57,377 nucleotides of DNA from Macrostomum lignano (taxonomy: Eukaryota). The translations under genes and the position numbers were made by a program. Of this stretch, positions 6,718 through 42,300 are shown piece after piece. Position 1 is the first letter of the stretch. Each line of letters opens with the position of its first letter. The notes beneath the pieces are model-generated. The model was not told the origin of the DNA. It saw only the letters and a list, made by a program, of their open reading frames with translations, and ran no database searches. The DNA lies in assembly GCA_002269645.1 (NCBI GenBank), contig NIVC01004160.1, positions 1 to 57,377 of the forward strand, given 5' to 3'.

Positions 6718-9700
6718 ATGCCATCCAGCAGAGGTGGCGGCATCAGCCTGCTGGGCCTGCCGCTTCTGCTGCTGCTCGCTGCGGCAGCTGTGAAGCCGGC
6801 AGAGTCCGTGTTCTCCTTCAAGGAGGGCAAGCAGTACGTGTACGATGTGGAGACGCACACGAAAACCAAGGACATCGGTGACCTGTTCGTCACAGGCCAG
6901 GTAGAAACAATTGTACAATCGCTTAGTGACGTGTATGCACCTGTAGGAATTTTAAAAATCAACCTAACTGCTTTTATTACCGTTAATATTTACCTAGACA
7001 GGTAATAATGCATGTAGCTTAATTTTTATCACCCATTGACTATATTGATTTAAATTTATTAAGATTAAAGAGAAAGTTAAGAAATTTTGATCAATTGCAG
7101 TTAAAAAATTTTTAATATCTTAAGGTTGGTTTGTGGCCGAGTCTCGGGTTTGGTTCATGGCCGAAGCTCGGGTTTGGTTTATCGCCGAGTCTCGGGGTTG
7201 GTTTATGGCCGAAGCTCGGGGTTGGTTTTGGACCGAATCTCGGGGTTGGTTTATGACCGAGTCTCGGGCTTGGTTTATGGCCGAGTCTCGGGTTTGGTTT
7301 ATGGCCGAGTCTCGGGTTTGGTTTATGGCCGAGTCTCGGGTTTGGTTTATGGCCGAGTCTTGGGCTTGGTTTATGGCCGAAGCTCGGGTTTGGTTTATGG
7401 CCGAGTCTCGGGTTTGGTTTATGGCCGAGTCTTGGGCTTGGTTCATGGCCGAAGCTCGGGTTTGGTTTATCGCCGAGTCTCGGGGTTGGTTTATGGCCGA
7501 GTCTTGGGCTTGGTTTATGGCCAAAGCTCGGGGTTGGTTTATGCCCGAAGCTCGGGGTTGGGCTCGGGGTTGGTTTATGGCCAAAGCTAGGAGTTGGTTT
7601 ATGGCCAAATCTCGGGGTTGGTTTATGGCCGAAGCTCGGGGTTGGTTTATGGCCGAAGCTCGGGGTTGGTTTATGGCCAAAGCTCGGGGTTGGTTTATGC
7701 CCGAAGCTCGGGGTTGGGCTCGGGGTTGGTTTATGGCCAAAGCTAGGAGTTGGTTTATGGCCAAATCTCGGGGTTGGTTTATGGCCGAAGCTCGGGTTGG
7801 TTTATGGCCGAAGCTCGGGGTTGGTTTATGGCCAAAGCTCGGGGTTGGTTTATGCCGAAGCTCGGGGTTGGTTTATGGCCAAATCTCGGGGTTGGTTTAT
7901 GGCCGAAGCTCGGGGTTGGTTTATGGCCAAAGCTCGGGGTTGGTTTATGCCCGAAGCTCGGGGTTGGTTTATGGCCAAATCTCGGGGTTGGTTTATGGCC
8001 GAGTCTTGGGGTTGGTTTATGGCCGAGTCTTGGGGTTGGTTGATGGCCGAGTCTTGAGGTTGATTGATGGCCGAGTTTCGGGGTTGGTTGATGGCCGAGT
8101 CATGGGGTTGGTTGATGGCCGAGTCTTTGCTCCGATCAGAAATGTTCCAGCATCGATATGGCTGAATCAATGAACTCGCAACTTCGCTGCTTTTATCTCA
8201 TTTTCTTGAATGTCATTGCGTCAGCTGTTTCAACCCTAACATCGATCCCCGGTTTTCAGTTTTCCATCCAGCTGCAAGGCAAGGAGCCGGATGGATCTCA
8301 GCACCTGGCCCTGACGCTGACAAAGCTGCACGCCAGGAACGGCCGAGGCCAGACTGCGGGTCAGGGCAGCGACGTCAAGCTGGATGGCTGGTTCAGCTTC
8401 CACCTGGACCCAGCCGGCCGGGTCAGCCATGTCCGGTATCCGCATGACGAGACTGCGTTCTTGGCCACTGTGAAGAAGGCCATGGTCACAGCGCTTCTTG
8501 GACACGATGACGTAAGCCCGAAAATTTCAGTTTCCATGCATATATTTCCTCTCACCGCCAAAATTTCATTGAATGACTTTTCAAAGCTGCTTTATGTAAA
8601 CCCAATTCAGGAGTACAAGTTCCACAACACTCACGAGTGGAGCACCAAGAATCGCACCATCGGTCGGTATCACACCGAGATTTCAAAGACCAGGCGCGGA
8701 GTTCATGGGAACAACGTGCACAGAAATGTCACCCATGTAAGCTTTCACACTTTTATGACAATTCTTTGCAGCACAGGCGTGCACACGATTTGCACTGGAG
8801 GAGAAGGCGAAACTCTTGGGGTGTCTTGAGCGGCACCCCTGTCTCTTGATTGGAGCAACTGTCTTTTGGTGGGCGACCCTGTCTCTTAGGTGGGTGCCCT
8901 GTTTCTTGGTGGCTGACACTGTCTCTTAGGTGGGTGCTACTGTCTCTTGGTGGCTGACACTGTCTCTTGGTGGCTGAATTTGTCTCTTAGGTGGGTGCTA
9001 CTGTCTCTTGGTGGCTGACACTGTCTCTTAGGTGGGTGCTACTGTCTCTTGGTGGCTGACACTGTCTCTTAGGTGGGTGCTACTGTCTCTTGGTGGCTGA
9101 CACTGTCTCTTGGTGGCTGACACTGTCTCTTGGTGGCTGACACTGTCTCTTGGTGGCTGACACTGTCTCTTGGTGGCTGACACTGTCTCTTGGTGGCTGA
9201 CACTGTCTCTTGGTGGCTGAATTTGTCTCTTAGATGGGTGCTACTGTCTCTTGGTGGCTGACACTGTCTCTTGGTGGCTGAATTTGTCTCTTAGGTGGGT
9301 GCTACTGTCTCTTGGTGGCTGAATTTGTCTCTTAGGTGGGTGCTACTGTCTCTTGGTGGCTGAATTTGTCTCTTAGGTGGGTGCTACTGTCTCTTGGTGG
9401 CTGAATTTGTCTCTTAGGTGGGTGCTACTGTCTCTTGGTGGCTGACACTGTCTCTTGGTGGCTGACAATGTCTCTTGGTGGCTGACACTGTCTCTTAGGT
9501 GGGTGCTACTGTCTCTTGGTGGCTGACACTGTCTCTTGGTGGCTGACACTGTCTCTTGGTGGCTGACACTGTCTCTTGGTGGCTGAATTTGTCTCTTAGA
9601 TGGGTGCTACTGTCTCTTGGTGGCTGACACTGTCTCTTGGTGGCTGAATTTGTCTCTTAGGTGGGTGCTACTGTCTCTTGGTGGCTGAATTTGTCTCTTA

Positions 9701-12350
9701 GGTGGGTGCTACTGTCTCTTGGTGGCTGAATTTGTCTCTTAGGTGGGTGCTACTGTCTCTTGGTGGCTGAATTTGTCTCTTAGGTGGGTGCTACTGTCTC
9801 TTGGTGGCTGAATTTGTCTCTTAGGTGGGTGCTACTGTCTCTTGGTGGCTGACACTGTCTCTTGGGTGGGTGCTCCTGTCTCTTGGTGGGCGCCCCTGTC
9901 TTTTAAGTCGACCCTGCCTCTTGATTTCCCTGTCTCTTGTAGCTACCCCCGTCTCTTGGTACCCTATGGCTTGGAAGGTATGCATATGCCTGTAAAAGAT
10001 GCGGCTAGAATGGAGCTTCTTTCCATCATCAAGATTGGAAATGCGCTTTTGCATTTTGGAGAAGCGTATTGCAGTTGGGAGCCATTTTTGGCGTGCGACT
10101 GGAGGCTGGACGATCTTCCAGTCGGCCCGAATGCCCTCCTGCTATAAAGGCTACTGTCATTCTCTAATTATTCCAGACCATGCACTACAATCACGTCACA
10201 CGTCTGCCTGAGAGAACTTTCATACACGATGAGATCCACTTCTTTAATGATCAACCTGAAGGGTGAGTCAGCGAAGCGTCTATCTGCCGCATGAGCATCC
10301 TCATACATGTAAACAGGTACTCTAAAATAAGGAACGTTTCTCTAATCGCAATATTTCAGCTTCGATTCGGGCGTCAAGGTCAGGAAGGGCCCACGGGTGG
10401 TGATGGACAGGGAGCACGAAGATCCGACAAGTGTGTCCAGGGTGACCACCACGGCAAAATCGGAGTTCACGCTATCTGAAGTTCGAGACGCTTCACCGAT
10501 CAAACAGAGACCAGCAAAGCTGGCGTCTGAGAATATTAACCAGACCAGGGTGAGCTCATGGAGTTGCCAGTTAGCGTTTTGAGCATCGCAGTACATGCCA
10601 ACTCACTATCCGTGTTTCAGCTGCATGAGGTGTTCCAGTCCGACTACGATTTACGAGACGTTCGGCGCGGCATCGACTCCAACCTCACCTGTATAGCCAC
10701 CGACACTGCGGAATGTGAGTTTGCTTAGCTAAATTATTTGTCAAGTTGAAAAGCTTTTGCTTGACTTTATTTTTGTCTTACGCCACTAAATTTTAGCCAA
10801 ATCCGACGCTATCGACTGCTACCACAACTTGGTTCAAATATTGCAAGGACTGTCTCAGCGAGAGCTGAATGAAATTGCTTCCATGTACTTGGACCGGCCG
10901 TATGGCAATATGTAAGCTCGCGCTTTTATTGGGATACCTGCTGTTGCTTTTGAGATCAACCGCAGCGAGCACACATGTAACTTGCTGCTTGATCTACCTA
11001 CATTTCAGCACAAAGGATCTGGAGAAGAAGAGGTTCCTGGCCATGCTGGATGCAGTCTGCAGTGTTGGCTCCGTTGCATCTGACTTGATCATCAATAAAC
11101 TGGTTCTCAAGTCCAGGAGCAGACATCCGGAGCTCGTCCAGAGGGTGCTCGTGTTTCTGGCTACAAGAAAGAACGCCCCAGCAAACGTGAGCTGAAGAAT
11201 TTGGAATGCCGTATCGAAATCGTAGAATACGGTAGTCCGCTTAAGTAGGGCTTTGAACTCGTGACTCGTGTTGCAAAATGCGTTATCAAAAAGCAAAATT
11301 TTCAATTTTAGCATTAAACTTCGCAATATTTCTCCTTCTGGATTTTCGAATTGCACATGAGCCAAGTATTGTTCGTAGGAAAAAATTGGAAGAGCATAAT
11401 ATTGCAGAGTGCAGAGTTCACAATTACATTTGTTTTTTAGTTTCGTGTTGTGATTTATTATTACCAGATATTGTTATTACCTTCTACTTAAGTCGTTCAT
11501 GACTCAAAGAGTACCAACATCCGGGTGCCATGATAAAAATGATGCTGTTTAAAAATGGTTTTAGGCCCTGGTGAATACTCTGGTCACGTTTGTGTTCAAT
11601 CCCGAGGGTCAGCCCGATATCAATGACCCGGACACTTACCACCGCTGCGTGCTTGCCCTCGGCACCGTCTGTCGCCTGATGCAAAGCTACGGCAACCAGC
11701 AGCAGAAGGCCATGGCTCAGAGCATAGTTAGCCAGCTGGAAAAATTGACCGAAGTCTTCGGTGAGTAAAAATATCAGAAATTGCTTTCATAAAGAGCTTC
11801 AAAATTGACAATTTAAAAGCCTCGCTTTCAGATCCGTACCATCACCGGTCAAAGAGGGACGTCATGGACGATGCAACATTCGAAAGGTTCATATTCTTGA
11901 AGTCTTCGCTGATTGACAGTTTAGGAAATGCCGCTTTTGAGAGTTCATTTGAGGTCATCCAGTCCTACTCTAACGAGTCGTCGGCACCCACTCTGTGGAA
12001 GCGTTCTGGGCTGCATTCTATGCGCAAATTCGAGACTATTGAGGTTTGTCTTTGTAGTAAACAGTCTGATTGCTCTCCTCAAGCGGGACTTTTATTTTTG
12101 TTTTTTGCATCCTGTTTTCAGGCAGCGTCAACAATCCTCACTGCCGCACTAACTGACTCTGACGAGCACGTTCGATACGAGGCCAGCCTGATGTACGAGG
12201 CTCATCCGTCAAAAACTAAGGATATTGCCACCATGCATCGCGAATTTGTTGAAGGGTGCGTTCAAAACGAGTTCTTTAACCCTATATGTAATTTGTTTAA
12301 ATCAATAATTATTTATTTTGCTATATATTTGCGCTCCGTGTTGTAGAATT
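6718..12350 (+). CDS. N-terminal large lipid transfer protein (vitellogenin-N/MTP-like) domain exons
   Basis: FSFKEGKQYVYDVET after the signal peptide matches the LLTP beta-barrel start. Helical-domain motifs CVLALGTVCRL, LIDSLGNAAF and KRSGLHSMRKF match the LLTP alpha-helical region (LKSLGN.G ... R..A..ALR). Confidence 0.7.
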
Positions 12351-18300: not shown

Positions 18301-21300
18301 TTTTTCAGCTACTCCGTGGATCGAGTTGGCAAGGACTACGTGAAGCTAGATTTCGACCTGTCCGTGTGCTTCGCTGAAGGAGATTGCGACTTCACAGTCA
18401 AGCTGCTGAAGGACACGGTGGTACCGCAGCCATTCTGCCATCGGAACTTCACCGGCGCTCTGCCAGGCGGCTCGCTTGGCGACTTCGCCAAACTGCTCGG
18501 CAACGAGGCCTCGGAGGCGGCGCTGCAGACAGCCTTTGAGGCGGTGGTGCGAAGGTTCGGCCTGCAGAAGGCCTTCTTTAATCCTCCAGAGTGCGCATTG
18601 CCGTCAAACACATTCAATAATGGCTGGGACAGTCGTGAGTCTTCGCTGTGAACTGACATTTACCTCATGACATAGTAAATCATTAAGCTTCTTTAATCAT
18701 GATTAATTACGCCTGCCCCAATGGGCAGATGTACAACTGACAGCTCAGTCGCAGTCATTGCGCGGCACATCTGAAGGCTGTGCACGGCTGTTCAGTCCAA
18801 TGACTGGGGGGTCACACACTCTTAATTACCCCAGCTAATGCTGGCACCCATTTTACAGCTGAGTGAACTGAAGCAATGCATAGTTAAGTGTCTTGCTCAA
18901 GGACACAGATTGTTCCAGTGGGATCGGAAATCGAACCCCCGAGTCGTGAGTCCGACACATTAACCACTATTACCAACAACGCATTATTCCACTGCTAACT
19001 TACACAGTAAGAAGTTAATTTACTTTTAGAAGTCACTACGCTCGTACAAGAGTCAGATGTCTATTGATGCTAAATTCTGTTCAGAATAAATTGAATGTCA
19101 TTTCCAGCTATGGAAAGTTCACTAGAAGCAGTTTATCCTCAAACTCGATTCCACAGGTTGCCCCAGGGTGTTCCACCTGCCACGCCTGCCCAGCCAGGTC
19201 CGCTGCCACCTGAACGAGTTCTGCATGGGCGTCACCTGCTGCGCCGAGCTGGACTTTAAAGTGTTTAAACCGACAGCGCTGATGTGGCTGATTCTGGATC
19301 CGTGCGAGTACCGGTTCTCCATTGGTTTCAATAACCTGCACTACAACCAGACTCTGTTCTATTATGAGTGGGGCCAAGTGGAGACTTTCAATATTGGCTC
19401 GCCTCTGCAGATTATGTAAGCTGTTGTATTTGAAAAGATAGTGCATGCAAGCTCCACAATCGGGTGACAAACGTTGACGCCTTTGGTGCTGCGATTTTGG
19501 TGCTGGCGCCTTTGGTGCTGGCGCCTTTGGTGCTGGCGCCTTTGGTGCTGGCGCCTTTGGTGCTGGCGCCTTTGGTGCTGGCGCCTTTGGTGCTGGCGCC
19601 TTTGGTGCTGGCGCCTTTGGTGCTGCGCCTTTGGTGCTGGCGCCTTTGGTGCTGGCGCCTTTGGTGCTGGCGCCTTTGGTGCTGGCGCCTTTGGTGCTGG
19701 CGCCTTTGGTGCTGGCGCCTTTGGTGCTGGCGCCTTTGGTGCTGGCGCCTTTGGTGCTGGCGCCTTTGGTGCTGGCGCCTTTGGTGCTGGCGCCTTTGGT
19801 GCTGGCGCCTTTGGTGCTGGCGCCTTTGGTGCTGGCGCCTTTGGTGCTGGCGCCTTTGGTGCTGGCGCCTTTGGTGCTGGCGCCTTTGGTGCTGGCGCCT
19901 TTGGTGCTGGCGCCTTTGGTGCTGGCGCCTTTGGTGCTGGCGCCTTTGGTGCTGGCGCCTTTGGTGCTGGCGCCTTTGGTGCTGGCGCCTTTGGTGCTGG
20001 CGCCTTTGGTGCTGGCGCCTTTGGTGCTGGCGCCTTTGGTGCTGGCGCCTTTGGTGCTGGCGCCTTTGGTGCTGGCGCCTTTGGTGCTGGCGCCTTTGGT
20101 GCTGGCGCCTTTGGTGCTGGCGCCTTTGGTGCTGGCGCCTTTGGTGCTGGCGCCTTTGGTGCTGGCGCCCCAAACTAAAAGCGCTAGCTAAGACCCTGAA
20201 AATCAGATGCTGTCTGAAGTGGATATCTGTGTTGCTATGCTATTCCAACCAAATCTGAAATCAAAGCTACTGAGATTATTAGATAATTAACGGAAATCGC
20301 GTCACGAATTTAAATAAGCTATTTCCTTCAGAAGTAAGTAACCCGGCCCATTAACCTTCAATTGCAGCTACTCAATTCGCAAGGACAGTGATCGGCGCTT
20401 GTTCCTCGTGGACCTGAAGCTCAGCCTCACCATCGACTCATTCCGCACCGACTTTGTGCTGCTTGAGAACTCCATGGTGCCGCAAGTGGGCTGCAACATG
20501 AACGCTTCTATCAGCTTGCCAGGAGGCGGCCAGGTGAAGGATTTTATCAGGCACCTAGCGGAGACAGGTGTGCAGAAGATCACGGACGAAGCCGTGCAGG
20601 CTGTGCTCAGACACCTGGGGATTGGAGACCTCATTGACTTTGAGTCGAAATGCGAGAATAGAACTGGATTTTTCAACCGTGAGAACATCACTACGAGCGT
20701 ACTGATTTTTTATACATGAACTCAATAAATTCATGTCAGTATAAAACCAAAATTCCAGACTGCCCGCTGTTCAAGACGTCGGCAAACGCGCCATCCAGAT
20801 TTGTCCCGGGCACTTACTGCGACCTCTCATCCGACTGCCGCATGCTGAGCTGCTGCGCGGAGCTCAACCTGCTCATCGCTCGGAAGGCCTTCGCCCTGGC
20901 CGTTTCTGTTGACCCGTGTGACTACAAGCTGCTGGTTCGCTTTGAGAAGATGACGCTGAGCAAGTCTTTGTTCCGATACGACTGGGGCCGTAGAGAGTCC
21001 TTCGACCTCGGCAAAGTCATTTTCGTCAGGTTGGATTTTTTCTTTGTCTCTTCAGAAGCACATTCGGAGCTGACATAAAAACTGATGTGTCTCTCTGCCC
21101 CGCAGTTTCAAGATCGATAGGGATCCGGTCAAGAAACTCTACTTCGTGGACCTTGAGCTGCAGGTTAAAATCGAGGGTGACACTTCGACACCCGTGGCCT
21201 TCCTCAACAACTTCGCCATCCCGATTCCGATCTGCAATCCCAATGCATCCATCAGCCTGCCAGGCGGCTCCATCGGAGACTTCGTCAAGGAGTTGGGCGG

Positions 21301-24300
21301 AAGCATCACGGAGAGCGCGATCGGAGCTGTGCTGCGGCACCTCCGGCTTGAAGGCATCATCGCCACGCATTCCAACTGCTCGCCGGAGAGCCCAAAGGGT
21401 ATTAGACTTTTTCAAATACTTTATTTTGCAGAACCACATGCTTAGACTGAAGTCTAGTTAGTGTAGATTTGTTTTAGGGTAAGAAAAGGCTTGGCCACTG
21501 CGCGGCCTTGAGCGCCAATATATATATTTAGAAATCGATATTTGCGTGGGGTGGAGTTGCGCCTGATAAAAAGGAAGCGTGCAAGCTAATTGGCTGCAGA
21601 GCGACCGGGGCAGGCATTGTACACTTGAGGGTCAGAGAGTTGGACGGGTGCACGGCCAACATCCTTCCCCAAGCGGATAAAAGTTAGGAGATAAGAGCAA
21701 ATGGGAAGCTAAGTAATATTTCGAAGTGGGAATCAGAGGGGAATGGATGTGAGTGAATAGTATGAAAATATACGGATTTGAGAACGAATATTCATTAGGG
21801 CATAAACACAAATATGAGCATGGATAAGAGTTTAGGCATTAGTTTCGATCAAATGAGCATTACCTTTGAAAATAGACACGAGCATTAGTTTCGAATATAA
21901 ATACGACATTAGTTTCGAATATAAATACGAGCATTGGTTTCGAATATAAATACGACATTAGTTTCGAATATAAATACGAGCATTGGTTTCGAATATAAAT
22001 ACGACATTCGTTTCGAATATAAATACGACATTCGTTTCGAATATAAATACGACATTCGTTTCGAATATAAATACGACATTAGTTTCGAATATAAATACGA
22101 GCATTAGTTTCGAATATTTGGCCTTTGAAGCAAAAGCTAAAAGCTATGTATGCTGCTGAAGATTAAAAAATAAAACGAGACCGGCAGGGACACCCCAGTC
22201 AGAGAGTTGGACGGGTGCACGGCCAACAGTTAGGTAATTTTAACTCTCAGAGTAAGCCAACTTGAAATAAGAAAAGATTAACTTTTACGATCGTACAGCA
22301 CCGCATAGGAACCTACCCCCCCCCCCCTACATATCAGATATTATCAATGCAAGTGTCGAATAGTTCATAAAAAACTGGCAGGGTGATAGCAAGCTCTTTG
22401 AATTACGTTCTCTACATTTTAATTCCACTGCCGTGCAAAAATTTCAGTTTGTCCCGGCCTTACGCTGCCCGACTTCATTCCGGACCCGCTGAAGTGCTAC
22501 CTCAACGAGCACTGCATGGGCATCGAGTGCTGCATGAGTTTGGATTTCAAAATCAAGCAGATCTCCGTCAAAGCCTGGGCCTATGTTGATCCATGCGACT
22601 ACAAATTCTCAATCGGTCTGGAAAACTGGAAGTTCGAGAGGGCGCTGTTCTCATTCGACTGGGGAGAGTGGAAAACTGAACGTCTGGGCAACCCGCTGGT
22701 GCTGCGGTAAGTCAGCAGCCGCCATCTGCTGGCGTGGGGGAATTTTTTAGCTAAATATGTTGTTAATTTCAGATACCGGATCGCAAAGGACAGCTCTAGG
22801 CGCGTGTTCACCTTTGACCTAACAATATCGCTGAAGGTGGAGGACATCAACCAAGAGTCCGTTGTGCTGCACGGCTACGAAATTCCGCAGCTGGTTTGCA
22901 ACAGGGAGGCTTCAATTGGCATTGCAGGTCCGAGCTTGCACTTATTCAACATTTATTCAAGTTATACTGTTCAATAGTGCCTGTCTATCAAATTGAAAAG
23001 CTTAGACTGCATAAGAAACCTTTATATAATTGCTATACATATTCACCCGATGAAAGGCATTTTGCTAACTGTGAAACACTCCTCCCTCCCGCCTTATTCT
23101 GCAAGGCATTGTGCTTCTGCCATAACCTTAACGCTATACTGATTTAAAGAACCATGCAATGAGAATAGGTGTATCAAAATGTAAGTGAAATATTTGCAGA
23201 CCTAATCAACCTGGGAAGCAGCATTGGCGGGAACATCAAGGACACAGCCATGGGCATCACTCTGCAGCGCATCGGGCTGGACAAGAAGTTCTTCCGGATG
23301 CAAAACTGCTCAGTCGAAGGCTCCGAGTGGCAGAGCTCTTCTCGGCAGCAATCAAGTGGGTAGCCATTTGTATGTTTTGTCCATTTAATGCTGCAATCAG
23401 TCAGATTTTAACGCTAATATTTTATGCATTCTCAGACTGTCCGCTGTTCAAACTATCGGACCATCTGAACGGCGATAAGAACTTGAAGTGCCGCATCAAA
23501 GACAACTGCCTGGAGGTTGAGTGCTGCCTCAGCCTGCAGCTGGGCAACTTCCGCTACAGCTACAACGCCTGGGCAAAGTTCGACCCCTGCCAGCTGTCTG
23601 TAGCGGTTGGAATTGAAAATTGGAACTGGACCCGGTCACTGTTCGACAAGTGGGGCCTCATGCACACGGAGACCATTGGCAAGGCCATCGATTTGAGGTG
23701 AGGCGAATAATCCCTCCCGCAAAATTTAGTTCGGAGAGGAAATCAACAGACTTTTTACACTATTTTACAGCTTCAAATTCGACCGCACGAATCGGAACGA
23801 GCTCGTCGTGAGCTTCGGGGTCGGCACCCAGCTGGACGGCCTATCGTTGTTGCCAACTGCGTGGCTGATTGAGTCCGCTCCGCTGCCCATTCCCTACTGC
23901 CGCTCCGATAACACGCTGTCTTGGCCAAAATGTGAGAGAATCAGATAATCTTCTTCAGTATCTTAAAGTGGGAAAAAACTACTAATCCCAGTTTGCTCTT
24001 TCTGTCCCACAGTCGATCCGCAAGACATGGCCAAGTCGATTTTCGATGCGGGCACTAAGATCATCCTGAACAGAGTGGGCATCACCGCCAACATCCTTCG
24101 CGGCACAGCGTGCTCCCCAGTCGATATGAACATCTGGCCTCCGAAGAGTGGTAAGGTTCCATTGCGGTTTGGTGCTTTTGTACCTGTGGTCAGCACTGAG
24201 CCTAAGACTTGGATCCCCAGGGGCTCACATCTCGTGCGCTTTACAAGTGGCAGACATAAATAAAGAACCTACTCACTTGCCCGACGCAACAGAACAGCTA

Positions 24301-30300: not shown

Positions 30301-33300
30301 TGCCTTGACGATGCAGGACAGCCCTGCACAGTGGTTGGCCTACTTGACAATCAGCGGTTGCAGGTGCCTCTGTGTCACACCAACGGAACGATTGACTGTA
30401 AGTAATGGTACTTCAAGGTGATGTGTTCCTTATTACCCGACTTTCGATAATCAAGGAACAATCACTTCTAGCTCAACAGCTAGGCAACCCAGTAAGTCAA
30501 ACGAAGGTATTCAATTACCTTTAATCCGGATTTGAATTTCTTGAGTAGTTCTCGCTAGATTGTCAGTAGATCTCGTAGTCACTTGATTTTCGTTGTCTGG
30601 TCCGATTCTTCTTTCTTCTAAGTTCCGGCCGGATTCTTCGCTCAGGACCAATGAGCTCGTAGCAACAATGGGTCCCTGCGCCAAACTGCGGTCTAAATTA
30701 AGCCTCCTTCTTCTAGCAGTGCCTCTATGCACTCTAGGTATAGCTCCGGAAACCACTGATAGTCCTCTAAGATCTATCAGGGGCAGTCCTTCTGTAGACT
30801 GCAACCAATGGAGTCTAAACAGACTCAAGAGTCTCAACAGACTCAAATAGACTCAAGTCTCAATAGACTTGAGCGAGACGTCTCTAACACAACGGCGCAA
30901 ATAAGGAAGGCTTACCGCAACAACTCGACCGAGTCTCGATTGACTTGGTATATCAGGAAGTCCTCCTAAGGCTTCCTCTTCGGAGCGCTCCTCTTCCGTG
31001 GGGAGAATGGCTCCGGTACCGCTTCAGATCGCTTGTATTTATAGACAAGTTTTTGATCCAAAATAGTATCATGACAATTCACGTGTTGCGCTAAAAGGGG
31101 AAAATGGCTCATGGCGTATTATTCTGGTAACATCTTTTTCTGGTAGCGTGATTCATTCAAAGCTTAGGCGCACATGCGTGTACTTACTTACTTATAGTAG
31201 TATTATACGATTATCTTCTTTTTTCCTTTTTTAACGGGAGGTAGAACACTCTACAAAATCTCCCTTTTTTACGAAAAAACTCGTCCCGAGTTTTAACAAT
31301 AAAATTCTGTGGTGATCAGTTAATATAGGAAATAAACAATTGATTTTGTGCGCGTCTAGTGAAGCGAGGGTTTGGTCAAAACTCTAAAAACTTTTCAGTA
31401 CATATTGCGGTCAAAACTCGAATATCGCGTAGACATCAAGTGGCATCAGGTTTGATCCGACACCACTTTCGAAACGTGCAGTCTCGCGGCATACTATTAC
31501 ATAAGGGGCATCCTATAACGCCCCTACTAGCGGTTTGCTTCAAACAGTGCATGCAAATAAAATGTTGGTGGTTACAATATTGAAACGTGCGCCAAGAATA
31601 ACAATAGGCACATTGTCGCAAACTATCTCTACAGAGGGGACAATTCTGCCATGGCTGAATATAATGTGAATCGCTTAAACATTGTCCGCAAACTTTATGT
31701 TCGTTGATGCAAATAGTCGGTGGCTTGACAGCCAAGTCATCAGTTAAACATATCGGGCAGTCATATAGCTGCTGAGGCTGGGGCGCCTGTTTTGACAGTG
31801 CGTTGCCCATAATTGTCGTCAATTTGTCGCTGTCTTTGTGTCGCTCGGATTAGTCGCCTTTTACGACAAGCTTGCGAAGCTGTAGTGCTATTCTTTATCC
31901 CGGTCACTACACGGGGTTGTTCTCTAAACTCTAGCGTGGTCGTAGGTTGTAGCCATGTGGCTGGCTCACATCTGTCGTTTGAGTCTCCTCGTGCTTCGTC
32001 GCGATGTGGCGGTTCGTTGAACGCGTGCGATCAGCGTTGTCTAATGTCGGTAGAAACGTCGCGGTGTCAGTGTTGATCTTCTTTAGTCGATGAATGTGCA
32101 CGTAGAATTGATGCTGATGTGGATCTTGCACATTAGCCAGGCGTGCCGTTGTTGGTGACGTTAGTTGGACCACTCGATAGGGTCCTTTATACTTCTGTGC
32201 ATGTTTATGCGTCTGCTGCGGCGGGTAGTGTAGGTAAACGATGTCGCCGGCCGTCAGGGTTGTCGATCTCGCGTCGTTGCCGGTGGTCAGAGCCACCTGG
32301 TTGTCAATGTTGTGCTTGGCGATCTTCCATGCGAGGTGTAGTTGCGTGACGAATTTCTGAATGGAAGTCGGTACTTCCACGTACTGCGATGGTAGCAATT
32401 GCTGTGCGAGCAGATTCGGCGGTTGGAAGTCTCGTCCAAACATTAGGAAGAATGGCGTATTGTCCGTTGATCGATGAATAGCGCTGTTGTAGGCCATTGT
32501 TACAGATTGCAGGTAGATGATCCAGTCTTCCGGCTGTTGGTGCGCGAAATGTGTAATCATCTCGTGCAGGTTGCGGTGAAACCGTTCAACCATGTTTGCC
32601 TTCGGATTGTAGGTCGATGTGTAGATCTGCGTAATGTTGAGAATCCTTACGACTTGCTGAAACAGTTGCGATGTAAACTGCGATCCGTTGTCCGATGTGA
32701 GGTTCTTCGGCGTGCCGTACTTGCAAATGATTTCGTTGAAGAAACTCATTGCCACTGTCTGAGCTGTGATGTCCGGTATCGGTATGGCGATAGCAAACTT
32801 CGAGAAGATATCCAAGGCGGTTAGAATGTAGGTGTAGGCGATGCCCTGGAGACAGCTCGGTGGCAGTGGTCCGGTGATGTCGATGCTTAGACAGTCCATT
32901 GTAGTCGACTTCGGAATGGACTGTAGCTGCGGTTTCTGTCGTCGTCCTGTCTTTGATGCAGCACATGAATGGCAGTTGTTGCAATACTGCTTGATGTCGC
33001 CGTACATAGTTGGCCAAAAGTAGTATTGTTCCACTCTCGCGATGGTCTTTGCGGCCGACAGGTGTCCAGCGAGTGGGTTGTCGTGCAGCTCGTTGAGAAT
33101 TGCTTGCCGAAACGAATATGGTACGTAGATCTTGGGTTTATTGTCGCTCATCCAGTAGAGCCGTGACTTATTGATTGTTAGGTGTTGTCGTTGCTTGCGT
33201 AGGAACTTTCGTTCCATGGGGCTAAGTTTGATGTTCTTGTCGTCGTCTTTAACCGCTTGGTAGAAGTTGTCGCGCTCGGTTTCATCCACCAACTCCTTGA

Positions 33301-36300
33301 TGTTAGGGATTGGATGAATGGCGTTGACTTCATAGGCTCTTGACAGGGCGTCCGCGGCTTTGTTGGTAATTCCTGGTTTGTAGACGAGTTTGTAGTTGTA
33401 ATCCTGGATCTTGAGTGTCATCCTGATGAGTCGGTTGTTGGTCTGTCCTTTTGTAGTTACGACGTAGGTCAATGGTGCATGATCCGTGCGTACTATCGTC
33501 TGTATTGGAGAACCATAGATGTAGTAATGAAACTGTCGCAGGGCGAACAAGACTCCTAGTAGCTCTCGTTCCGTAGCTGACCACTTTGTCTCATTTGGTT
33601 TGAGTGCTCGACTGACGTAAGCAATAGGTCGTTCCTTCTTGTCCTCGGTTTCCTGTAGTAGGACTGCTCCGAGTCCCGTTCCTGAGGCGTCTGTCTCGAT
33701 GATGAAGAGCTTGTCGAAGTCCGGATGCTGTAGCAGTGCGTCTGATGTCAGCTGTCGTTTGATTTCGTCGAAACTTTCCTGTTGTCTCTGTGTCCAGTTG
33801 TCTTGCTTCCATTTGTCGAACTTGAGCAGGTCGTACAGTGGCTTTGCTGTCTTTGCGAAGTTAGGTAAGAACTTCCTGAAGTATTGCGCAAGTCCAAGGA
33901 ATGATTGGACCTTCGTTATACTGGTTGGCGTAGGAAACTTCTTCACCTTTTCCACGTTGTCTGGGTCCGGTGAGATTCCTTTGGCTGTCACCTGATGTCC
34001 CAGGTAACGCACGTTGTCTCGGAAGAATTTGCATTTAGTTGGTTGTAGCTTCAGACCTTGACGTTGTATAAGCGCGAGGGCCTTCTCCGTCGCTTCATAG
34101 AGTCGTTCGAAGTCTTCTCCGTGGGCCAAGATGTCGTCAACATAGTGCAACAGGTTCGTGCATCCTGCAGCATGTATGCTGTTAGTCGGCTCATCGTTGC
34201 TGGGCTGTTGCTGAGTCCCATCGGCGATCGATTGTACTCGTATACTTGTCCATTGTAGGTTTTGAAAGCCGTGTACTGTCGTGACTCTTTCTCGATTTCA
34301 ATTTGCCAAAATCCATGACGTAGGTCGAACACCGTGAACAATTTTGCCGTGTTGAGCTTTGCTAGTAGTTCGGAGATCTTCGGTAGGCTTTGCTGATCCG
34401 TCGGTATGTACTTGTTCAACAGTCTGAAGTCGCATACGAGTCGTCTTTCGTTTGTCTCCTTCTTCTGTACCAGTAGGCACGGTGAGGAGTAAGCCGAAAT
34501 AGCTTTGCTGATGATGCCGTGCTTTAGCATTTTATCGATGATTTCGTCAAAGTGTTGTTGCAGATGCTTGGCGATCGGGTACGGCTTGCACTGAATTGGT
34601 TCCGTGTGCGGCAGAAGTTTGATTTCCTGTTTGATGTCCTTGGCTCGTCCGATGTCGTAATTATGATGGCAGAAGGCTTCGTTGTACTTCCACAACAGCT
34701 GTCGAACTTTCCTCTTTTGCTGTTCCGTAATCGGGCTGTCATCCAAATTGATCTTCTTTTGAAATTCTTCCTCTGTTAGTCGTGGAGTCGCTTGTTCAAT
34801 CAGCATAACCGATGCTTGGGTGTTGAGATGACCGATGCACATTCCTTGTCGTAGATGAACCGTTTCTGTGTTCGGGTTGCAGATTTGTACTGGCAGTTGC
34901 TTATCCTTTGCAACCAGCACTAGTGCCGTAGGCATCATGATTTGATGTTTTGCCGTGACTCTCCTGTGTGGATCAAATATCATTGCTTCATCTGCCGCGC
35001 TGGTCGTTTTCGCTCTGACCCAGCATGCGCTTTCAGGCTGGATAATGACATCTTGCTGCAGAGTTACTTTCGGTAGTACTCGAATCTGGTTGATCAGCGG
35101 TTGCTCCACCGTGTCGATCCTAAACGTTTGCTTGTTGAAGTCGAAGGTCAATGGTAGTTGAAGCTGCTTGAACGTGTCGATTCCAACGATGACGTCTTGG
35201 TTTGGTAGTCTGTCGATGATGTACGTCGGGACCGTCAGCTGTTTATTAGCAATTTTCAAGTCGATATCTGCTTTTCCTAGGATGTTGAGTGAATGTCCTC
35301 CTGCTCCTGCAACTGCGATTGCTGCTGGTCGTACCGCGAGTCGTAGCTTGTTGCATAATTGTTGCGAGATGACTGTGATCGAGCTGCCTGAATCCAGTAG
35401 TGCTCGACATGGCAAGTTGTTGACAATGACCTGAGCCATTGCTTTGCCAATCTCGGCGTGTAGCGTACAGACGTAGTTTTCCGGCCATTTTGGCTCGTGC
35501 TGTTCTGCTTGATAGTTGGGTGGTTGTATCCTTGGTGCCGTTGGTGTTGTCGGAATCGATGGATATAGCCGCGTTGCTAGTGTCGGTTGCCCTTGAACCT
35601 CACAATGTGCAGTTTCTGTTAGTTCTAAACTGTTGTCGCTTCCCGTTGTCGTTCTTTGCATTATGGCATTCACTGTCTTCTTAGCTCTTGGACAAGTTTG
35701 ACTGAAGCACCGTACGATCGATGAAATGATGAAGATTGCCGTGACAATCCACACAATGCAAGCACCGTAGAAGATGAATCCTTGATAGAGACTGCCTCTT
35801 CCATTGAGCAGCTCCCAGAAGCTATTTGTCCAAAATGATTTGATGGCGCTGTCCATTGAAACAAGGACGGGAAATCTTCCTGTCCCGGTTCCTTTGTCCT
35901 TTCTTGTGAACAGCTGGTGAATCATCTTGCGTTGGGTGATGAACGCTTGCAAGAAGTCGTTGATCGTCCATCCTGGTGTTATCTCGTCAAGTTGGATATC
36001 GGCGAATGGCGTATACTTCGTTCTGTTGAATCGGATTTTCAAATCCTCCATGTCGTAGTTTTCGTCGACGATTACTTCCGGTTCTGTGACGTTTGCTGTC
36101 GTTCCAGTTGTTTTGATGACGTGTAGTGCATTGTCCAGTTGATAGTAGTTTGCTGCCGTGGTGCAAGGTCTCGGTATTGCGGTGCCAACGATGATGTTGT
36201 GTACCGTGTCCAAGAATCCCTGAATTCGTTTTCCTTCGTAGAACGCTTCAATCCTTGGCTTGTCGTAGCAGGTTGTTGACGTGTTCGACGGCAAGATGTT

Positions 36301-39300
36301 AAAGTGCTGTATCGGCGTGCACTTGTATATTAACAGATGCTCGTATATTGGAACTGCCAAAACGTTCGTCATTCCGGTGATTTTACGAAAAGTCATCGTA
36401 GGGTTGACATAGTAGTTTTGTCTGGCATAATTTAAGTTGATTGCGTGCATTTTGCAAGTTAGCTGGACCAGTGTTCGATGCAAGTGGTTTAACTGGTTGT
36501 GTAGATTGTGATCCAAAGCCGTTATCTTTGCTGACAGTAGTCGGTTTGACACCAGTTTGGGACGTTCGATGTCACGTCGTCGTCTGTTCTGTTGTTCCTG
36601 CTGTTGATACGTTCCGTTGATGATCGCCAGAAAGGTTTGTTTGTCGTCATCTTTTACGTAGACTGGTATCTCTTGTTCCGAGATGAATAGTGTCTTGTCT
36701 GTATCCTTGCATTTCAGTTTTTGCTCGACTGGTTTCTTTTGAAACGTCAGTGCCAAGTCTCCTGACTTTGCCAAAAACGTATTTGACAGTAGTCCTCCTT
36801 CAACTGTGTGATACTTTTGAAGCTTGCAGTCAATTTCCGGCTCAACTTCCCACGCGAAGAAGTATTGTCGTGACTTAGATGGTTCTTCATATCGTGAGTC
36901 GCCTCTGCGTATAATTTGCCATCGATAGTCTTGATGATATGTTGGACTCAACGGTAAGCTGTATAGTTCCTCATTCCGCAGTATCGGCGTTGGACACCAT
37001 CCTTTGCTGTATCGGCAGTCGCTTAATTGCAGTTGTAGCGACTCCATTTTTTCAAAAGGATTGTGATAGAATGGAATATTCCTGATTAGGTAACTGTTTC
37101 GTGTCATGTAGTTAGTCCATGCTTCCGAAAAGTGTACATATCGTCCGTTTGCTGAGTTCTTCGTTCGGTAAAGTTGTGCCTCCCCACTTTCTCATCCGGT
37201 TCTAGCTGACCATCCTTTGAGAACAGTGTTTGGTTCCATTGTAGACATTCAGCGTGCGACACATGTAGTTCGTGTTGCCAAAATCGAATTCTGTTCCACT
37301 GTCCTCGCCAAACTTTTTCCACTAGGTGCTTGTCTCTAAAGCACACTATTCCGAGTTGTCGATGCTTCTTGATGTTAGCTTTGTAGAGATCAATTGTGAT
37401 CTTCTTTGGCTTCGTCTGGTTTGTCTTGAAGTAGCTGCATTTGATGTCGGTTGGTATCTTGTAGATCATTGGTTGGATATGCGCATCCGTTGGACATATC
37501 ATTGGTTTCTCCATTGCCGTTGCTTTGGCGACTACTGCTATCAGTAGTATCACGATGATCCAGAGCAGCCAGTTTTTCCACTTCTTGGACCTTGCCGTTG
37601 TCTTTGCTGGCATTGGCTGCGATTGCCATTCGTTATCCTCCATGTCCGCATCGTATTCTTTCGGTTGTTCCATTGGCTGATTCAGGCGGAAGGCTTCTGA
37701 TTTGCTTTGCTCTTTGGTTATTTCAGTATCTTCGTCTGTAGCTTCTTCCGATGTTTCCGTTGTTTCACTCCATTGCGTTTGGTATCTTTTCTCTGCCTTG
37801 TAGTCGACCGTTTGAATATAGGCTTCACCATTTCGTTTGTATCGGATCTCGTAGCATTCGTCGCTGTCGGAACTCGGCTTTTCTTTCATTTGTTCTTTTT
37901 CCATTTCTTCATCTTTCCATTGTATTTCGTAGCCTTGATCGCTGTCGGAACTTAGATTTTCCGCTCTCAGTTCTTCCTGCATTCCTTCTTCGGCTCGGTA
38001 TCCATTCGTATCATCATGCACTTCGCAGTCGTGATCGTTGCCGTAACTTATACATTCTTCTTCTTCCTTCATTTCTTTGTCTTTCGTGCTTGTTTTTTCG
38101 TCATCCACTGTTGTCGATTCATAGTTGTTTTCTCTGCCAGTCTTCATCTTTTCTTCGTTGCCGGTGTCGCTCTCCGTCTCCTCCCTTTTTTTGTGATTTA
38201 CTTTCTTCCTGTTTTCTCTGCTGTCTCCGGTGGTCTCTTTTAATTTGATCATTTCGGTTTCATTCGCCTCTTCTGTGTTGTCAGTGTTGTCCTCGTGCGT
38301 CGTCTTCTTTTCGATCAAGCTGATGTCAAGTTCCGGGACTGTGAAGTCCATTTCCAAGTCGTCAATTGTGAACACTTGCTGTTCCTGCTGCTCATTTTCC
38401 GGTGTGTACGTGATGGCATTCGCGTATCGTGGCATTGCTTGCGTTGGCTGTCTTTGTGCGTACCTGGCATTGCGTGGCCTGTAGCCATTATTTCTGAAGC
38501 GGCCTTCGTTTCCGAAGCGGCCATCATTTCCGGAGCGGTCATTATTTCCGAAGCGTCTATCATTTCCGACGCGTCTTATGCTTTGTTGTTGGCGATTTTG
38601 ATATTGCTGCCATGGTTTCTGCGGCTTCTGATTGTTGAATATCTGTCGCGGCTTGTCGTATCTTGTTGACCAATGAGGACAATTAATCTGATAATGTCCT
38701 TCTTGTCCGCAGTAGTAACATCTGGCTGAGGCTTGTTCATTTCGTCTTTTTTGTTCGGCGATAGCAGCTGTCTGGTGCTGCATTAACTTGTTTAGTTGCT
38801 GCGTCAGTTTCTGCACTTCATTGTTGCCTGTCGTCATTAATGGGGCACTGGCTTCCCACTGCATTCCGCACCGCAAAAGGTCTTCTTCGGTTTCGATATT
38901 TTCACGCAAAAGTCTATCCCGAAGTGACGGCTGTGCGTTGTTTATTACGTGCAGGATGAGGTTTTGTTCGCGATCCATCAATCGTTGTCTTTCTCTGGCG
39001 GCCAATTCTGCCGCTCCCAGTGGCGGTTGGTCCGCAGCTTGCAGCGGTGGCTGATGCAGTGCCTTAATTATCTGGCGGATATCGTCCACAAAGGCGAGGA
39101 AGGATTCTGTTGCTTGCATCCTTCTGTTATGCAACTTGTGCAGCAGCACTGATCTGTTTGTGCCGCAACGGTTGAAATGCGCGCGCAGTTGAATGATTAG
39201 TGCTGGATAATTTTGCTGTGTTGCTGCATCCAGCTTGCCGTAAATTTCTCGCGCAGTACCTTGGAGAAGAGGTGGCAGCAGCTGTGCCTTCTCTGGATTT

Positions 39301-42300
39301 TGTAGGTTGTATTCCCTACATACCAGGTCAAAGTGGTCGACAAATGTGTTAAAATCTTTCTCCATCGAGAAGGTACCGACCGTTTCTTTGATGTCTCTGT
39401 GTACCGTTGGATTGCGCCGCGCCATGTTGTTGATAGGATAGAACGGTAGTTCAAGATCTGGATCGATTTGTAACGGATCGTCCAGTGTGGTGTTTGCCTC
39501 GGAATAAACCTCGACTGTAACGAATTGTCTTGTGGTGTCGATTTGTTATTCGCTGGCCTCGGATGCGGTGTGGCTTGCTGCCACTGGTTGTCCTCAAATG
39601 AACTTGTTCTGTTCGCTTGCTGATTTCGCACTTATGCGGCGTCCCGCAAAGTGTATCTTCAAGTTGAAGTGGGCTTTGTCTTCTTGTTTTGCAAAGTCTT
39701 TTTCTCTTCTTTGACTCTCTCTCTTTTGTCAATTAACTCCGCTCTCCACGAAGTTTCAATTAATTTCGGTTTTGTTTTTGTGCCGGCAAAATGTTTCAGT
39801 TATTTTTTGTTTGTTTTGCGTCGACGATTCTTTTATTTTCGGTTTGTTTTCAGTGTACCGATGAATTTAATTTCGGTTTTATTTTAACTCACACTTGCTC
39901 GAGCTCGTTAAAACAAAATTTAACACGCGTGCTCAAACTGTACTCAAATTTGACAGGTGCTCAAACCTGTACACCAAAATTTACTCGAGTTTCAAAACGT
40001 AACGGACTTAAAAAGTGTTAACTCTAACACGTGCGCGCAAAATTAATGAAGTCGCTCTGTCGTCACTTTACAATAGCTTGATCAGGGCTATTGCTCAAAG
40101 TTTGAGTAGTGCCGAGAGGGCGAGATCACCAATTGATGTGTTCCTTATTACCCGACTTTCGATAATCAAGGAACAATCACTTCTAGCTCAGCAGCTAGGC
40201 AACCCAGTAAGTCAACAGAAGGTATTCAATTACCTTGAGTCCTTTGGAGATCTCTCGGAGTAGTTCTCGATTGTCTTCAGTTGCTCTCGTATAGTCACTT
40301 CTGACTTTCGTTTGTAGAGCGGGTCCGATTCTTCTTTCTTCTTCAAATAGTTCCGGCCGGATTCTGTCGCTCGGACCAATGGGAAGCTTCCGAATTAACA
40401 GTGGGATCCCTGCGCCAAACTGCGGTCTAAATTAAGCCTCCTTCTTCTAGCAGTGCCTCTATGCACTCTAGGTATAGCTCCGGAAACCACTGATAGTCCT
40501 CTAAGATCTATCAGGGGCAGTCCTTCTGTAGACTGCAACCAATGGAGTCTAAACAGACTCAAGAGTCTCAACAGACTCAAATAGACTCAAGTCTCAATAG
40601 ACTTGAGCGAGACGTCTCTAACACAACGGCGCAAATAAGGAAGGCTTACCGCAACAACTCGACCGAGTCTCGATTGACTTGGTATATCAGGAAGTCCTCC
40701 TAAGGCTTCCTCTTCGGAGCGCTCCTCTTCCGTGGGGAGAATGGCTCCGGTACCGCTTCAGATCGCTTGTATTTATAGACAAGTTTTTGATCCAAAATAG
40801 TATCATGACAATTCACGTGTTGCGCTAAAAGGGGAAAATGGCTCATGGCGTATTATTCTGGTAACATCTTTTTCTGGTAGCGTGATTCATTCAAAGCTTA
40901 GGCGCACATGCGTGTACTTACTTACTTATAGTAGTATTATACGATTATCTTCTTTTTTCCTTTTTTAACGGGAGGTAGAACACTCTACAAGGGGTAACAG
41001 AAGAAAATGGATTTACGAAAAAATTATTTTTACACTCTTAGGGGACTTTGATAAGGTCGACGGCAGCAAGATCTGGGACAATGCCGCTGAGATAGCGCTG
41101 AAGCGGTTGAACATCCCTCCAGGCGTGTTCAAACCTGAGAACTGCTCAATCGTCACTTCGGCCGCGGTGTCAAGAAAGAACTGTCCGCATTTCACTGTGC
41201 CTCCGCATCTTCCTGAGGGCGCCAAGTGCAGAATTAGCGACGACTGTCTGGAAATGGATTGCTGTGTCGACCTGCAGCTGCTATCGTTTAAAAAGCAATT
41301 CCACGTCTGGCTCGAGATCGACCCGTGCGGTCTGCGGTTCGAAACTGGCTTTGAAAACTGGAAGTTCAACATTAGTCTTCTTAATCATATCGGTGAGACT
41401 ATTCATATGACGATTTGCGACAGAACTGTGTGCTCAAAAAGGCTTAAACCAACTGTCTAAAAATTCATAGGTCGCAGCTACAAGGAGAAGATTGGCAACT
41501 CGCTGTCAGTCAATTTCGAATATGGCCGAGCATCCGACGGTCAGCTGTTGGCCACGCTGTCAGTAGAGTTTTGCTACGACTTCCAGTGTACATTCGACAT
41601 CAAGCTGCTTGATATGGCAGTGATACCCATTCCAGCCTGCGGAGCATCAGGACTCGTGTGGCCTGAATGTGAGCCGTATTGTAGTTCCTTTGTACTTTGA
41701 AGCTATTACTTATCAGGAATTTGATAATAACTGAATTTGTAATTTCAGTAAACGCGGCCGGTCATGCCAAATCTGTCGAAGAGGCCACAAGAGGTCTTAT
41801 CGCTAACCGGCTGAAGCTGTCCCCGAACTTCCTGGCGGATCGTCAATGCGTAGTGAACGAAATTTTGAGCAGAAATGTGACTTGCTCACACGCCAATGTG
41901 CCTGCCTTGCCAGAATTCACAACTTGTGGCCTGGCACCCGGCTGCCTAGGAGTTGAGTGCTGCCAGCTAGTGGACTACAAGCTGCTCAATAGGAGCTTCT
42001 CCACCTGGATTCAGTTCGATCCTTGTACCTACACGTATTCAGTTGGCTTTGAGCGCTGGTATCTGAATGGCACTCTCATGAATTTTACTGGATGGAATGA
42101 AGAGCAGCAGCAGAAGATCGGCGACCAGCTCACCCTGCGATTCAAGGTGGCAAAAGCGCAACAACTGCAAAGCTTCATAGTAGGCATGTCGCTTGAGTAC
42201 TGCGATGCCAACGATTGCAATCGAGTAGCGAATATTCTTCACGATCAGGAGTTCCCGGTTCCCGTCTGTTTGGACGGCTCCAGGCTTGAATGGTCGAATG

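Follow-up and report, generated by a model that had tools for sequence, protein, structure and literature searches.

How can a retroelement that carries env between gag and pol, read as one chain, place each of its products on the proper side of a membrane? The question is raised by a long terminal repeat (LTR) element of 10,571 bp on the minus strand of contig NIVC01004160.1 of Macrostomum lignano (NCBI GenBank assembly GCA_002269645.1, positions 1 to 57,377; the whole 57,377-nucleotide stretch is called the window), which runs Gag, internal signal, a predicted glycoprotein B (gB)-like class III Env, a transmembrane (TM) helix and, as Pol, protease, reverse transcriptase, RNase H and integrase (PR-RT-RH-IN). 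In well-studied retroviruses and errantiviruses Env is made separately and the enzymes are packaged as Gag-Pol, or via RNA in foamy viruses. One chain with two membrane crossings requires a different answer to how the capsid is anchored, how the products are proportioned, when protease acts and how Pol is packaged. The architecture has been catalogued, but how such an element works is left unexplained in those parts of the literature that we found. M. lignano is a laboratory model, in which native products of the element can be examined.

Sequence comparison demonstrates that natural copies carry the whole order in one frame, with exactly two predicted membrane-spanning segments around the gB-like ectodomain, and that Env bears the signature of purifying selection. 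The element is of a recently multiplied GAG-ENV-POL kind. As judged from these sequences, it is very probable that Gag stays cytosolic, that Env becomes lumenal and that Pol returns to the cytosol.

Signal, helix and reading frames in the window copy

An earlier note, made from the letters of the window, had read the region as a polyprotein with an alphavirus- or flavivirus-like topology. The segments on which it relied are all in place on the minus strand (Table 1): a basic stretch, the hydrophobic WLLWIIVILLIAVVA and ATA followed by M, then, from 35781, one TM segment followed by RC (35712-35707) and basic residues, upstream of the protease motif LLDSG. Its count of membrane segments holds as well; strong hydrophobicity is confined to two 19-residue windows across the three coding frames (Kyte-Doolittle value, KD, 2.60 and 2.43), and the third best, in integrase, has a KD of 1.51 and an unfavourable insertion sum of +6.6. 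Measured over 11 residues (KD11), the h-region of the signal reaches 3.8. The M behind ATA is not a conserved feature: of the 18 close genomic copies with a signal, 14 have T there and 4 have M.

Three stop-to-stop frames span the coding region (37104-39545, 34051-37191 and 31931-34297). By Pfam, the first holds the zinc knuckle, the second a weak Monjiviricetes fusion-glycoprotein match, the protease and the start of RT, and the third the remaining RT, RNase H and integrase, which gives the order Gag, Env, Pol. In the window copy one frame switch separates the signal from most of the ectodomain and a second lies in RT (34051-34297), so that the single polyprotein is shown by other genomic copies and not by this one. 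Unbroken copies lack both switches, and these are therefore not programmed. A programmed -1 frameshift was considered and rejected: no slippery heptamer is common to the eight copies scanned, and L021 has none whatever. Within each of the two intervals where the frame switches, contigs from sequencing runs differ in length from the window, consistent with an assembly error or with a change found only in the window copy.

LTRs with TG...CA ends, a primer-binding site (PBS), a polypurine tract and the domain order PR-RT-RH-IN are present, as in Ty3/gypsy elements (Metaviridae). The Pfam matches to RT_RNaseH and Integrase_H2C2, together with the classification in PMC13524379, point to an element of the Ty3/gypsy type.

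Unbroken copies and families in the genome

A genome search with a 333-residue piece of Env gave 162 candidates, 121 of which were scored. Fifteen of these 121 Env matches lie within open frames of 2,461-2,866 codons, in natural, unmended copies; in three families (99%, 61% and 29% Env identity) Pfam places PR, RT, RH and IN in single frames, the knuckle being found by Pfam or by motif scan. Among 19 close copies the signal is found in 18, in 14 of which it is in frame into the later ectodomain, and in 18 of the 19 the TM helix is in frame into the protease. The comparison set was made of 20 stretches with 23-99% Env identity and eight more chosen by RT similarity, and includes eight families with an Env; the elements L044 and L045 lack env. 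All eight families have a basic n-region with an h-region, an ectodomain, one helix and, about 100-135 residues on in the same frame, PR. L041-L043, taken for a signal-less counter-example under a 19-residue threshold, proved on closer inspection to have a signal.

Eight copies taken from the 20 stretches (seven families and a 90% subfamily) were scored further. They carry 3-5 basic residues ahead of the signal, 2-5 basic and 0-1 acidic residues after the helix, and 12-14 Cys in the ectodomain, and in all eight aligned copies an R-x-K/R-R furin-type motif stands ahead of the long central helix. N-glycosylation sequons are denser in the ectodomain (53 in 5,443 residues, 0.97 per 100) than before it (25 in 4,376, 0.57) or after it (30 in 6,780, 0.44). 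The topology that the earlier note had put forward, in which Gag is cytosolic, Env lumenal and Pol cytosolic again, is thus well supported by comparison: by the two predicted spans, the positive-inside charges, the cysteines, the sequons and the gB fold described below.

Fold and selection of Env, and the form of Gag

The Env ectodomain matches Pfam PF24664 with an E-value of 2.8e-5, under the curated cut-off, and against the sequences of solved structures the best match of the window Env piece has an E-value of only 0.24. The ectodomain of a natural unbroken copy, modelled on a 64-sequence alignment, reaches a predicted local distance difference test (pLDDT) score of 81.6. When this model was compared with the PDB by Foldseek, herpesvirus gB chains filled the listed rows, the best being gB of Kaposi's sarcoma-associated herpesvirus (E 9.5e-22, template-modelling score about 0.4); among viral models the matches were rhabdo-like, nyamivirus, chuvirus and herpesvirus glycoproteins, with nyamivirus ranking high. 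By the fold of its model, Env is a predicted class III (gB-like) fusogen. Of the likeness to an alphavirus or flavivirus chain drawn by the earlier note, sequence features for an internal signal and a stop-transfer segment that would set the compartments are there, and a class II fusion glycoprotein is not. In L029, L031 and L033 the ectodomain has a Thr-rich, mucin-like insertion of 200-290 residues just before the furin site.

Between near copies, the ratio of nonsynonymous to synonymous differences (pN/pS) in Env is 0.07-0.10, similar to that of Pol, which indicates that Env is under purifying selection. Env differs more than RT at the protein level (90% identity vs 99-100%), and we asked whether env evolves or is exchanged more quickly than pol; this was rejected, as synonymous divergence is alike (0.36 vs 0.31 in L025). 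Being alike in L025 and patchy elsewhere, it argues for stronger constraint on RT together with recombination. Along the element, synonymous divergence of L021 from L024 and L025 is patchy, in L025 0.04 in PR and 0.3-0.5 in env and RT, which suggests recombination between subfamilies.

The Gag model has a pLDDT of 78. Retroviral and Arc capsids are the top rows of its Foldseek search, none of them at E at most 0.001, and a Gag profile run against PDB sequences matched mainly zinc knuckles. In the window family Gag begins directly with capsid-like helices and leaves no room for a matrix domain before capsid (CA); other families have low-complexity N-terminal extensions on Gag.

Late-domain-like motifs in the Env tail

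P(T/S)AP, YPx(L/I) and PPxY are the late-domain motifs by which retroviral Gag recruits the endosomal sorting complexes required for transport (ESCRT). In the window copy YPSI, PTAP and PPNY all lie within 18 residues of the roughly 95-residue linker between helix and protease. P(T/S)AP occurs in the tails of six of the eight families (shuffle mean 0.21) and YPx(L/I) in five of the eight (shuffle mean 0.40), counts that none of 5,000 composition-preserving shuffles reached, and across families the motifs stand at varying positions in otherwise poorly aligned sequence. The 100 residues preceding the signal hold P(T/S)AP once, and the 5,760 Env residues of the M. lignano families hold none of the three motifs. 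This distribution suggests that in the M. lignano families ESCRT-dependent budding may be driven from the Env tail; the cluster gives a concrete indication of budding in the form of enveloped particles.

Polyproteins of the same order in other organisms

A profile of the eight ectodomains matched 465 proteins at E at most 0.001, and a word-indexed search of longer proteins gave one match among 3,295 candidates. Among the best 150 of the 465, a knuckle precedes Env in 55 and PR or RT follows it in 56; both hold for 32, and RT precedes Env in none. In 28 of these 32 polyproteins a strongly hydrophobic 11-mer (KD at least 2.2) stands just before Env, compared with 6 of the 64 Gag-spacer windows that served as controls; in three of the four misses the search window was misplaced, the hydrophobic segment lying further up. 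A helix before Pol is found in 27 of the 32. Two of the 32 are near-copies of M. lignano families, and ten were looked up, among which the named organisms are Globodera rostochiensis and Caenorhabditis tropicalis. In P0087, P0108, P0138, P0123 and P0010, Env is joined to NADAR and a nucleotidyltransferase (two cases), joined to SPRY, or preceded by a protease; these are possibly merged gene models or co-opted env genes.

A proposed route from one chain to a particle

We favour the following account of the element, and consider it, taken as a whole (one chain, signal, stop-transfer helix, stub-anchored Gag and ESCRT-recruiting tail), to be rather likely, with less assurance than the two-span topology. 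One polyprotein of about 2,500 residues would be translated from the Ty3/gypsy-type element; Gag and the spacer would be made in the cytosol until the internal signal opens translocation into the endoplasmic reticulum (ER), and signal peptidase would cut after A-x-A. That this cut frees Gag from the membrane, as the earlier note had it, does not follow: signal peptidase cuts on the lumenal side, so that the signal stub would hold Gag on the membrane until another cut is made. The stub would in this way anchor Gag in place of the missing matrix domain. The ectodomain would be glycosylated, disulfide-bonded, trimerised and nicked by furin, and the helix would stop transfer, so that tail, PR, RT and IN come to lie back in the cytosol. 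Gag, held by its stub, and Pol, carried by the Env tail, would thus be concentrated on the same membrane face, and that tail, we infer along with the earlier note, could bring Pol to the budding site. Trimerisation of Env or budding itself would unite PR monomers, and PR would then release CA, nucleocapsid (NC) and the enzymes. In the M. lignano families P(T/S)AP and YPx(L/I) of the tail would recruit ESCRT for scission, in HIV Gag the job of p6. Least certain in this account is the way in which Pol, no longer joined to Gag, would get into the capsid.

A further reading is more tentative. Matrix-less Gag on a signal stub, Pol on the Env tail and late domains on that tail could together couple budding, protease activation and packaging to the folded fusogen trimer. 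Such coupled assembly, possibly assisted by a myristoylated RING accessory protein, would be like no characterised retroelement, and we regard it as conceivable and on the whole doubtful.

A question remains, how far does the favoured route withstand the observations that weigh against it? Spans and signals were called from hydrophobicity scales, charge and motif scans only. Under a strict 19-residue count, 20 of the 32 database polyproteins have two spans, eight have one, three have three and one has none; short signals fall under the threshold and gene models may be faulty, and an even number of spans may not be general. Two proteins depart from the order, P0123 with PR before Env and P0010 with PR on both sides of it. 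A clear small-x-small cleavage site is seen in five of the eight families, L027, L029 and L031 being ambiguous. As for the late domains, PPxY is not enriched in the tails (one of eight families), the L037 tail has no motif of the three, and the eight families are related and so are not eight independent events. Enrichment is weak outside M. lignano: in 28 distant tails (the 32 polyproteins minus the two near-copies and minus P0011 and P0122) P(T/S)AP occurs in one and any motif in eight. Two mechanistic difficulties also present themselves, namely the Gag:Env:Pol ratio of 1:1:1 that one chain would impose, and a tether that would leave from the NC, hence inner, side of the capsid shell; the spacer of 95-350 residues may allow a tether from that side of Gag. 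Finally, in the window family a Met lies in frame 14 residues ahead of the h-region, and a sub-genomic mRNA translated from it would also yield a conventional signal peptide.

Alternatives to the single-chain route

The last point leads to the explanation that survives best beside the favoured one, although we think it unlikely: the frame is continuous, yet most Env, Pol or both come from sub-genomic RNAs, cis-spliced or spliced-leader trans-spliced, with Env begun at a Met just ahead of the signal or Gag-Pol made from an env-skipping RNA. An env-skipping transcript would solve Pol packaging, and retroviral and foamy-virus Env, and foamy-virus Pol, are made from spliced RNAs, as the available sections of PMC7828637 describe. 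The nearest Met is close to the h-region in L037 also (10 residues); its distance ranges over 10-119 residues in eight copies and its position is not conserved. Moreover, both junctions stay open despite a spacer at 24% identity between families, and likewise in the 32 database proteins, and this means that selection maintains read-through. Among the sequencing runs listed as sharing this sequence none is recorded as RNA and 14 are presumed RNA. In four sequencing runs (three presumed RNA, one of unknown type) none of eight listed joints has minus-strand GT-AG intron ends, 24 of 130 loose ends having been seen; such contigs show presence, not absence, and so give no verdict on splicing or expression.

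Less probable still is that the first segment acts as an uncleaved or slowly cleaved signal anchor, which would leave a two-span Env linked to Gag until the element protease or a furin- or signal peptide peptidase-type enzyme cuts, in the manner of the foamy-virus leader. The c-regions are ambiguous in the three families named above, the leader of foamy-virus Env is present in the particle as a stable type II membrane protein (PMC7828637, in part), and hepatitis C virus (HCV) buds even when signal peptidase has not cut (PMC5402940, in part). Against these stand the clear A-x-A-type sites of the other five families and, in most relatives, an ectodomain start of the form P-M/L-x-C close behind the h-region, as after an ordinary signal.

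There is little to be said for a dual fate of the chain, in which an untranslocated fraction serves as a cytosolic Gag-Env-Pol precursor that packages Pol and translocated chains supply Env; it would be compatible with the favoured route. Lying about 620 residues from the first Met, an internal signal may be poorly recognised, and Pol would stay fused to Gag; but an unfolded ectodomain of 580 residues and 12 Cys in a capsid precursor would be costly, and the h-region is strong. That the layout is an artefact of chance hydrophobic stretches, or of env nested between gag and pol by insertion or mis-assembly, would suit a window copy that is broken in two places and alone is not one frame, but is refuted by unbroken natural copies, by the same order in many copies, eight families and other phyla, and by purifying selection on Env, and we give it next to no weight.

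Relation to known elements and viruses

The architecture is already in print. GAG-ENV-POL elements with a gB-type Env have been described from nematodes, bryozoans and flatworms (Chary and Hayashi, eLife 2026, PMC13524379), and the DeepTMHMM summary in the sections available includes ectodomains flanked by two TM domains. Their Platyhelminthes_Rhabditophora_Mlig_errantivirus_2, listed with 16 copies, is like the window element in gene order, gB-type Env, Ty3/gypsy Pol and the same 12-nt PBS, with LTRs of about 863 bp (856 and 837 here) and an LTR-to-LTR span of 10,591 (10,571 here); matched by description only, it is probably the same family. The window element for its part has env between gag and pol, a gB fold as modelled, a bounding signal and helix and multiple near-identical copies, as is typical of gB-type errantiviruses. 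The main text of PMC13524379, in the parts available, is without the words 'polyprotein', 'single ORF' and 'frameshift', and its preprint without 'polyprotein', 'lumen' and 'splic'; these parts hold no processing model, and late domains, accessory RING open reading frames (ORFs) and the seven further families were likewise not found in them. In its supplementary file 1, as far as available, only one M. lignano row was found. Literature searches on this gene order, preprint supplements lying outside their scope, turned up nothing besides that paper, and one joining late domains with gypsy env gave general retrovirus papers only. In the portion available of a preprint on heat-induced M. lignano LTR elements (10.1101/2024.12.18.629116) nothing on env was seen. 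Added here are comparative evidence for two membrane spans, a correction on how Gag would be released and the late-domain cluster.

Nematode elements with Env before pol are credited in PMC13524379, within the sections available, to Sacco et al. 2022 (J Gen Virol, doi 10.1099/jgv.0.001739). They resemble the M. lignano element in that nematode polyproteins are among our profile matches and nyamivirus glycoproteins rank high in the Env fold search; they differ in host phylum, and the tail motifs are mostly absent in the distant set. These nematode non-canonical endogenous retroviruses reportedly encode gag, env, pro and pol, in that order, in one continuous frame, and have a glycoprotein like that of nyamiviruses as well as accessory ORFs. 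The topology may already be stated in Sacco et al. 2022. Atlas virus, of the nematode belpaoviruses, likewise has one uninterrupted polyprotein, of 2,828 residues, with internal TM helices and cleavage sites, and unlike the M. lignano element has the order Gag-Pol-Env, a class II (phlebovirus-like) fusogen and a place in the Bel/Pao lineage (PMC9094657, in part). With Gag-Pol-Env, no enzyme needs to return to the cytosol; the C-terminal Env after IN that marks Belpaoviridae is not found in the M. lignano element.

Of the two virus groups invoked by the earlier note, Flaviviridae fit better. The comparison with alphaviruses is weak, since their capsid is released by self-cleavage ahead of the signal and no enzymes follow the glycoproteins. 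In the polyprotein of Flaviviridae enzymes do follow in the cytosol. Their capsid protein (HCV core ahead of E1, anchored C in flaviviruses) terminates, moreover, in the signal peptide of the envelope; HCV core remains membrane-bound once signal peptidase has acted, and a second enzyme then cuts it (PMC5402940). Flaviviridae differ in their class II glycoproteins, their many more spans and their lack of integrase and LTRs, so that this is analogy and no homology. Retroviral Gag (PTAP and YPxL of HIV-1 p6; PPxY) has the same short motifs just before the protease, on Gag, whereas those of M. lignano are on the tail, the Pol side of a membrane-spanning Env. Foamy viruses package Pol without fusion to Gag and keep the Env leader in the membrane; unlike the M. 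lignano element, they make Pol and Env from spliced RNAs and have a class I Env (PMC7828637).

Features of the element and its surroundings

Table 1. Parts of the element in the window (all on the minus strand)
Feature	Position	Strand	Remarks
5' LTR	40134..40989	-	856 bp, TG...CA ends; BLASTN of both ends
PBS	40114..40131	-	first 12 nt = PBS given for Mlig_errantivirus_2 (PMC13524379 supplementary file 1)
Gag	38670..39425	-	capsid-like helical domains from first Met; one CCHC knuckle 38720-38679 (Pfam zf-CCHC)
Acidic low-complexity spacer, NC to signal	37614..38669	-	about 350 residues, 24% D+E; conservation poor, frame kept
Internal signal-peptide-like segment	37515..37613	-	RSKKWK 37592-37575; h-region 37571-37527; A-T-A 37523-37515
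Env ectodomain, predicted gB-like class III fusion protein	35782..37514	-	frame change within 37104-37191 in window copy
Furin-type site RRRR in ectodomain	36574..36585	-	motif scan
Single TM (stop-transfer) helix	35716..35781	-	KD19 2.43; then Cys and basic residues
Predicted cytosolic Env tail, linker to protease	35434..35715	-	YPSI 35565-35554, PTAP 35544-35533, PPNY 35523-35512
Aspartic protease	35164..35433	-	LLDSG 35400-35386; Pfam Asp_protease_2 E 6e-10; same frame as Env helix
RT, RNase H, integrase	31931..34467	-	Pfam RVT_1, RT_RNaseH, Integrase_H2C2, rve; frame change inside RT 34051-34297
Accessory RING-finger ORF after pol	31436..31810	-	starts with myristoylation-like MGNALSK
Polypurine tract	31259..31270	-	–
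3' LTR	30419..31255	-	837 bp

The two LTRs are identical at 812 of 861 positions (BLASTN), with all mismatches within one block: about 590 bp are identical, and a U5-side block of about 170 bp (40236-40400 vs 30520-30680) is rich in indels. Contigs from the sequencing runs hold several further versions of this block, beginning at 40236; it may be a hypervariable block, a product of recombination between copies or an assembly chimera. When four flanking bases on each side were compared for a target-site duplication, three of the four positions agreed. The closest UniRef protein, 98% identical over half of the query, is labelled Macrostomum lignano. Ahead of the first Met of Gag 40 codons are open in the window (39426-39545, minus strand) and 23 in the 61% family, where translation may begin at a non-AUG codon or an exon may lie upstream.

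A myristoylated RING protein, as the myristoylation-like motif MGNALSK brings to mind, is reminiscent of arenavirus Z. The accessory RING ORF between pol and the 3' LTR reaches up to 222 aa in other copies, some of which have a second RING ORF, and accessory RING ORFs follow the pol stop in L021, L022, L026, L027 and L028. The MGNALSK-type start is not conserved, and the 61% family has two RING ORFs, both without an MG start.

The element lies antisense within an apparent short intron (30405-41060) of a large plus-strand host gene with repeated Cys-rich domains, two pieces of which gave no Pfam match. Tandem repeat arrays are found elsewhere in the window at 2195-2944 (35-nt units), 7003-8223 (24), 8787-9920 (41), 19356-20300 (15) and 21858-22100 (24-25).

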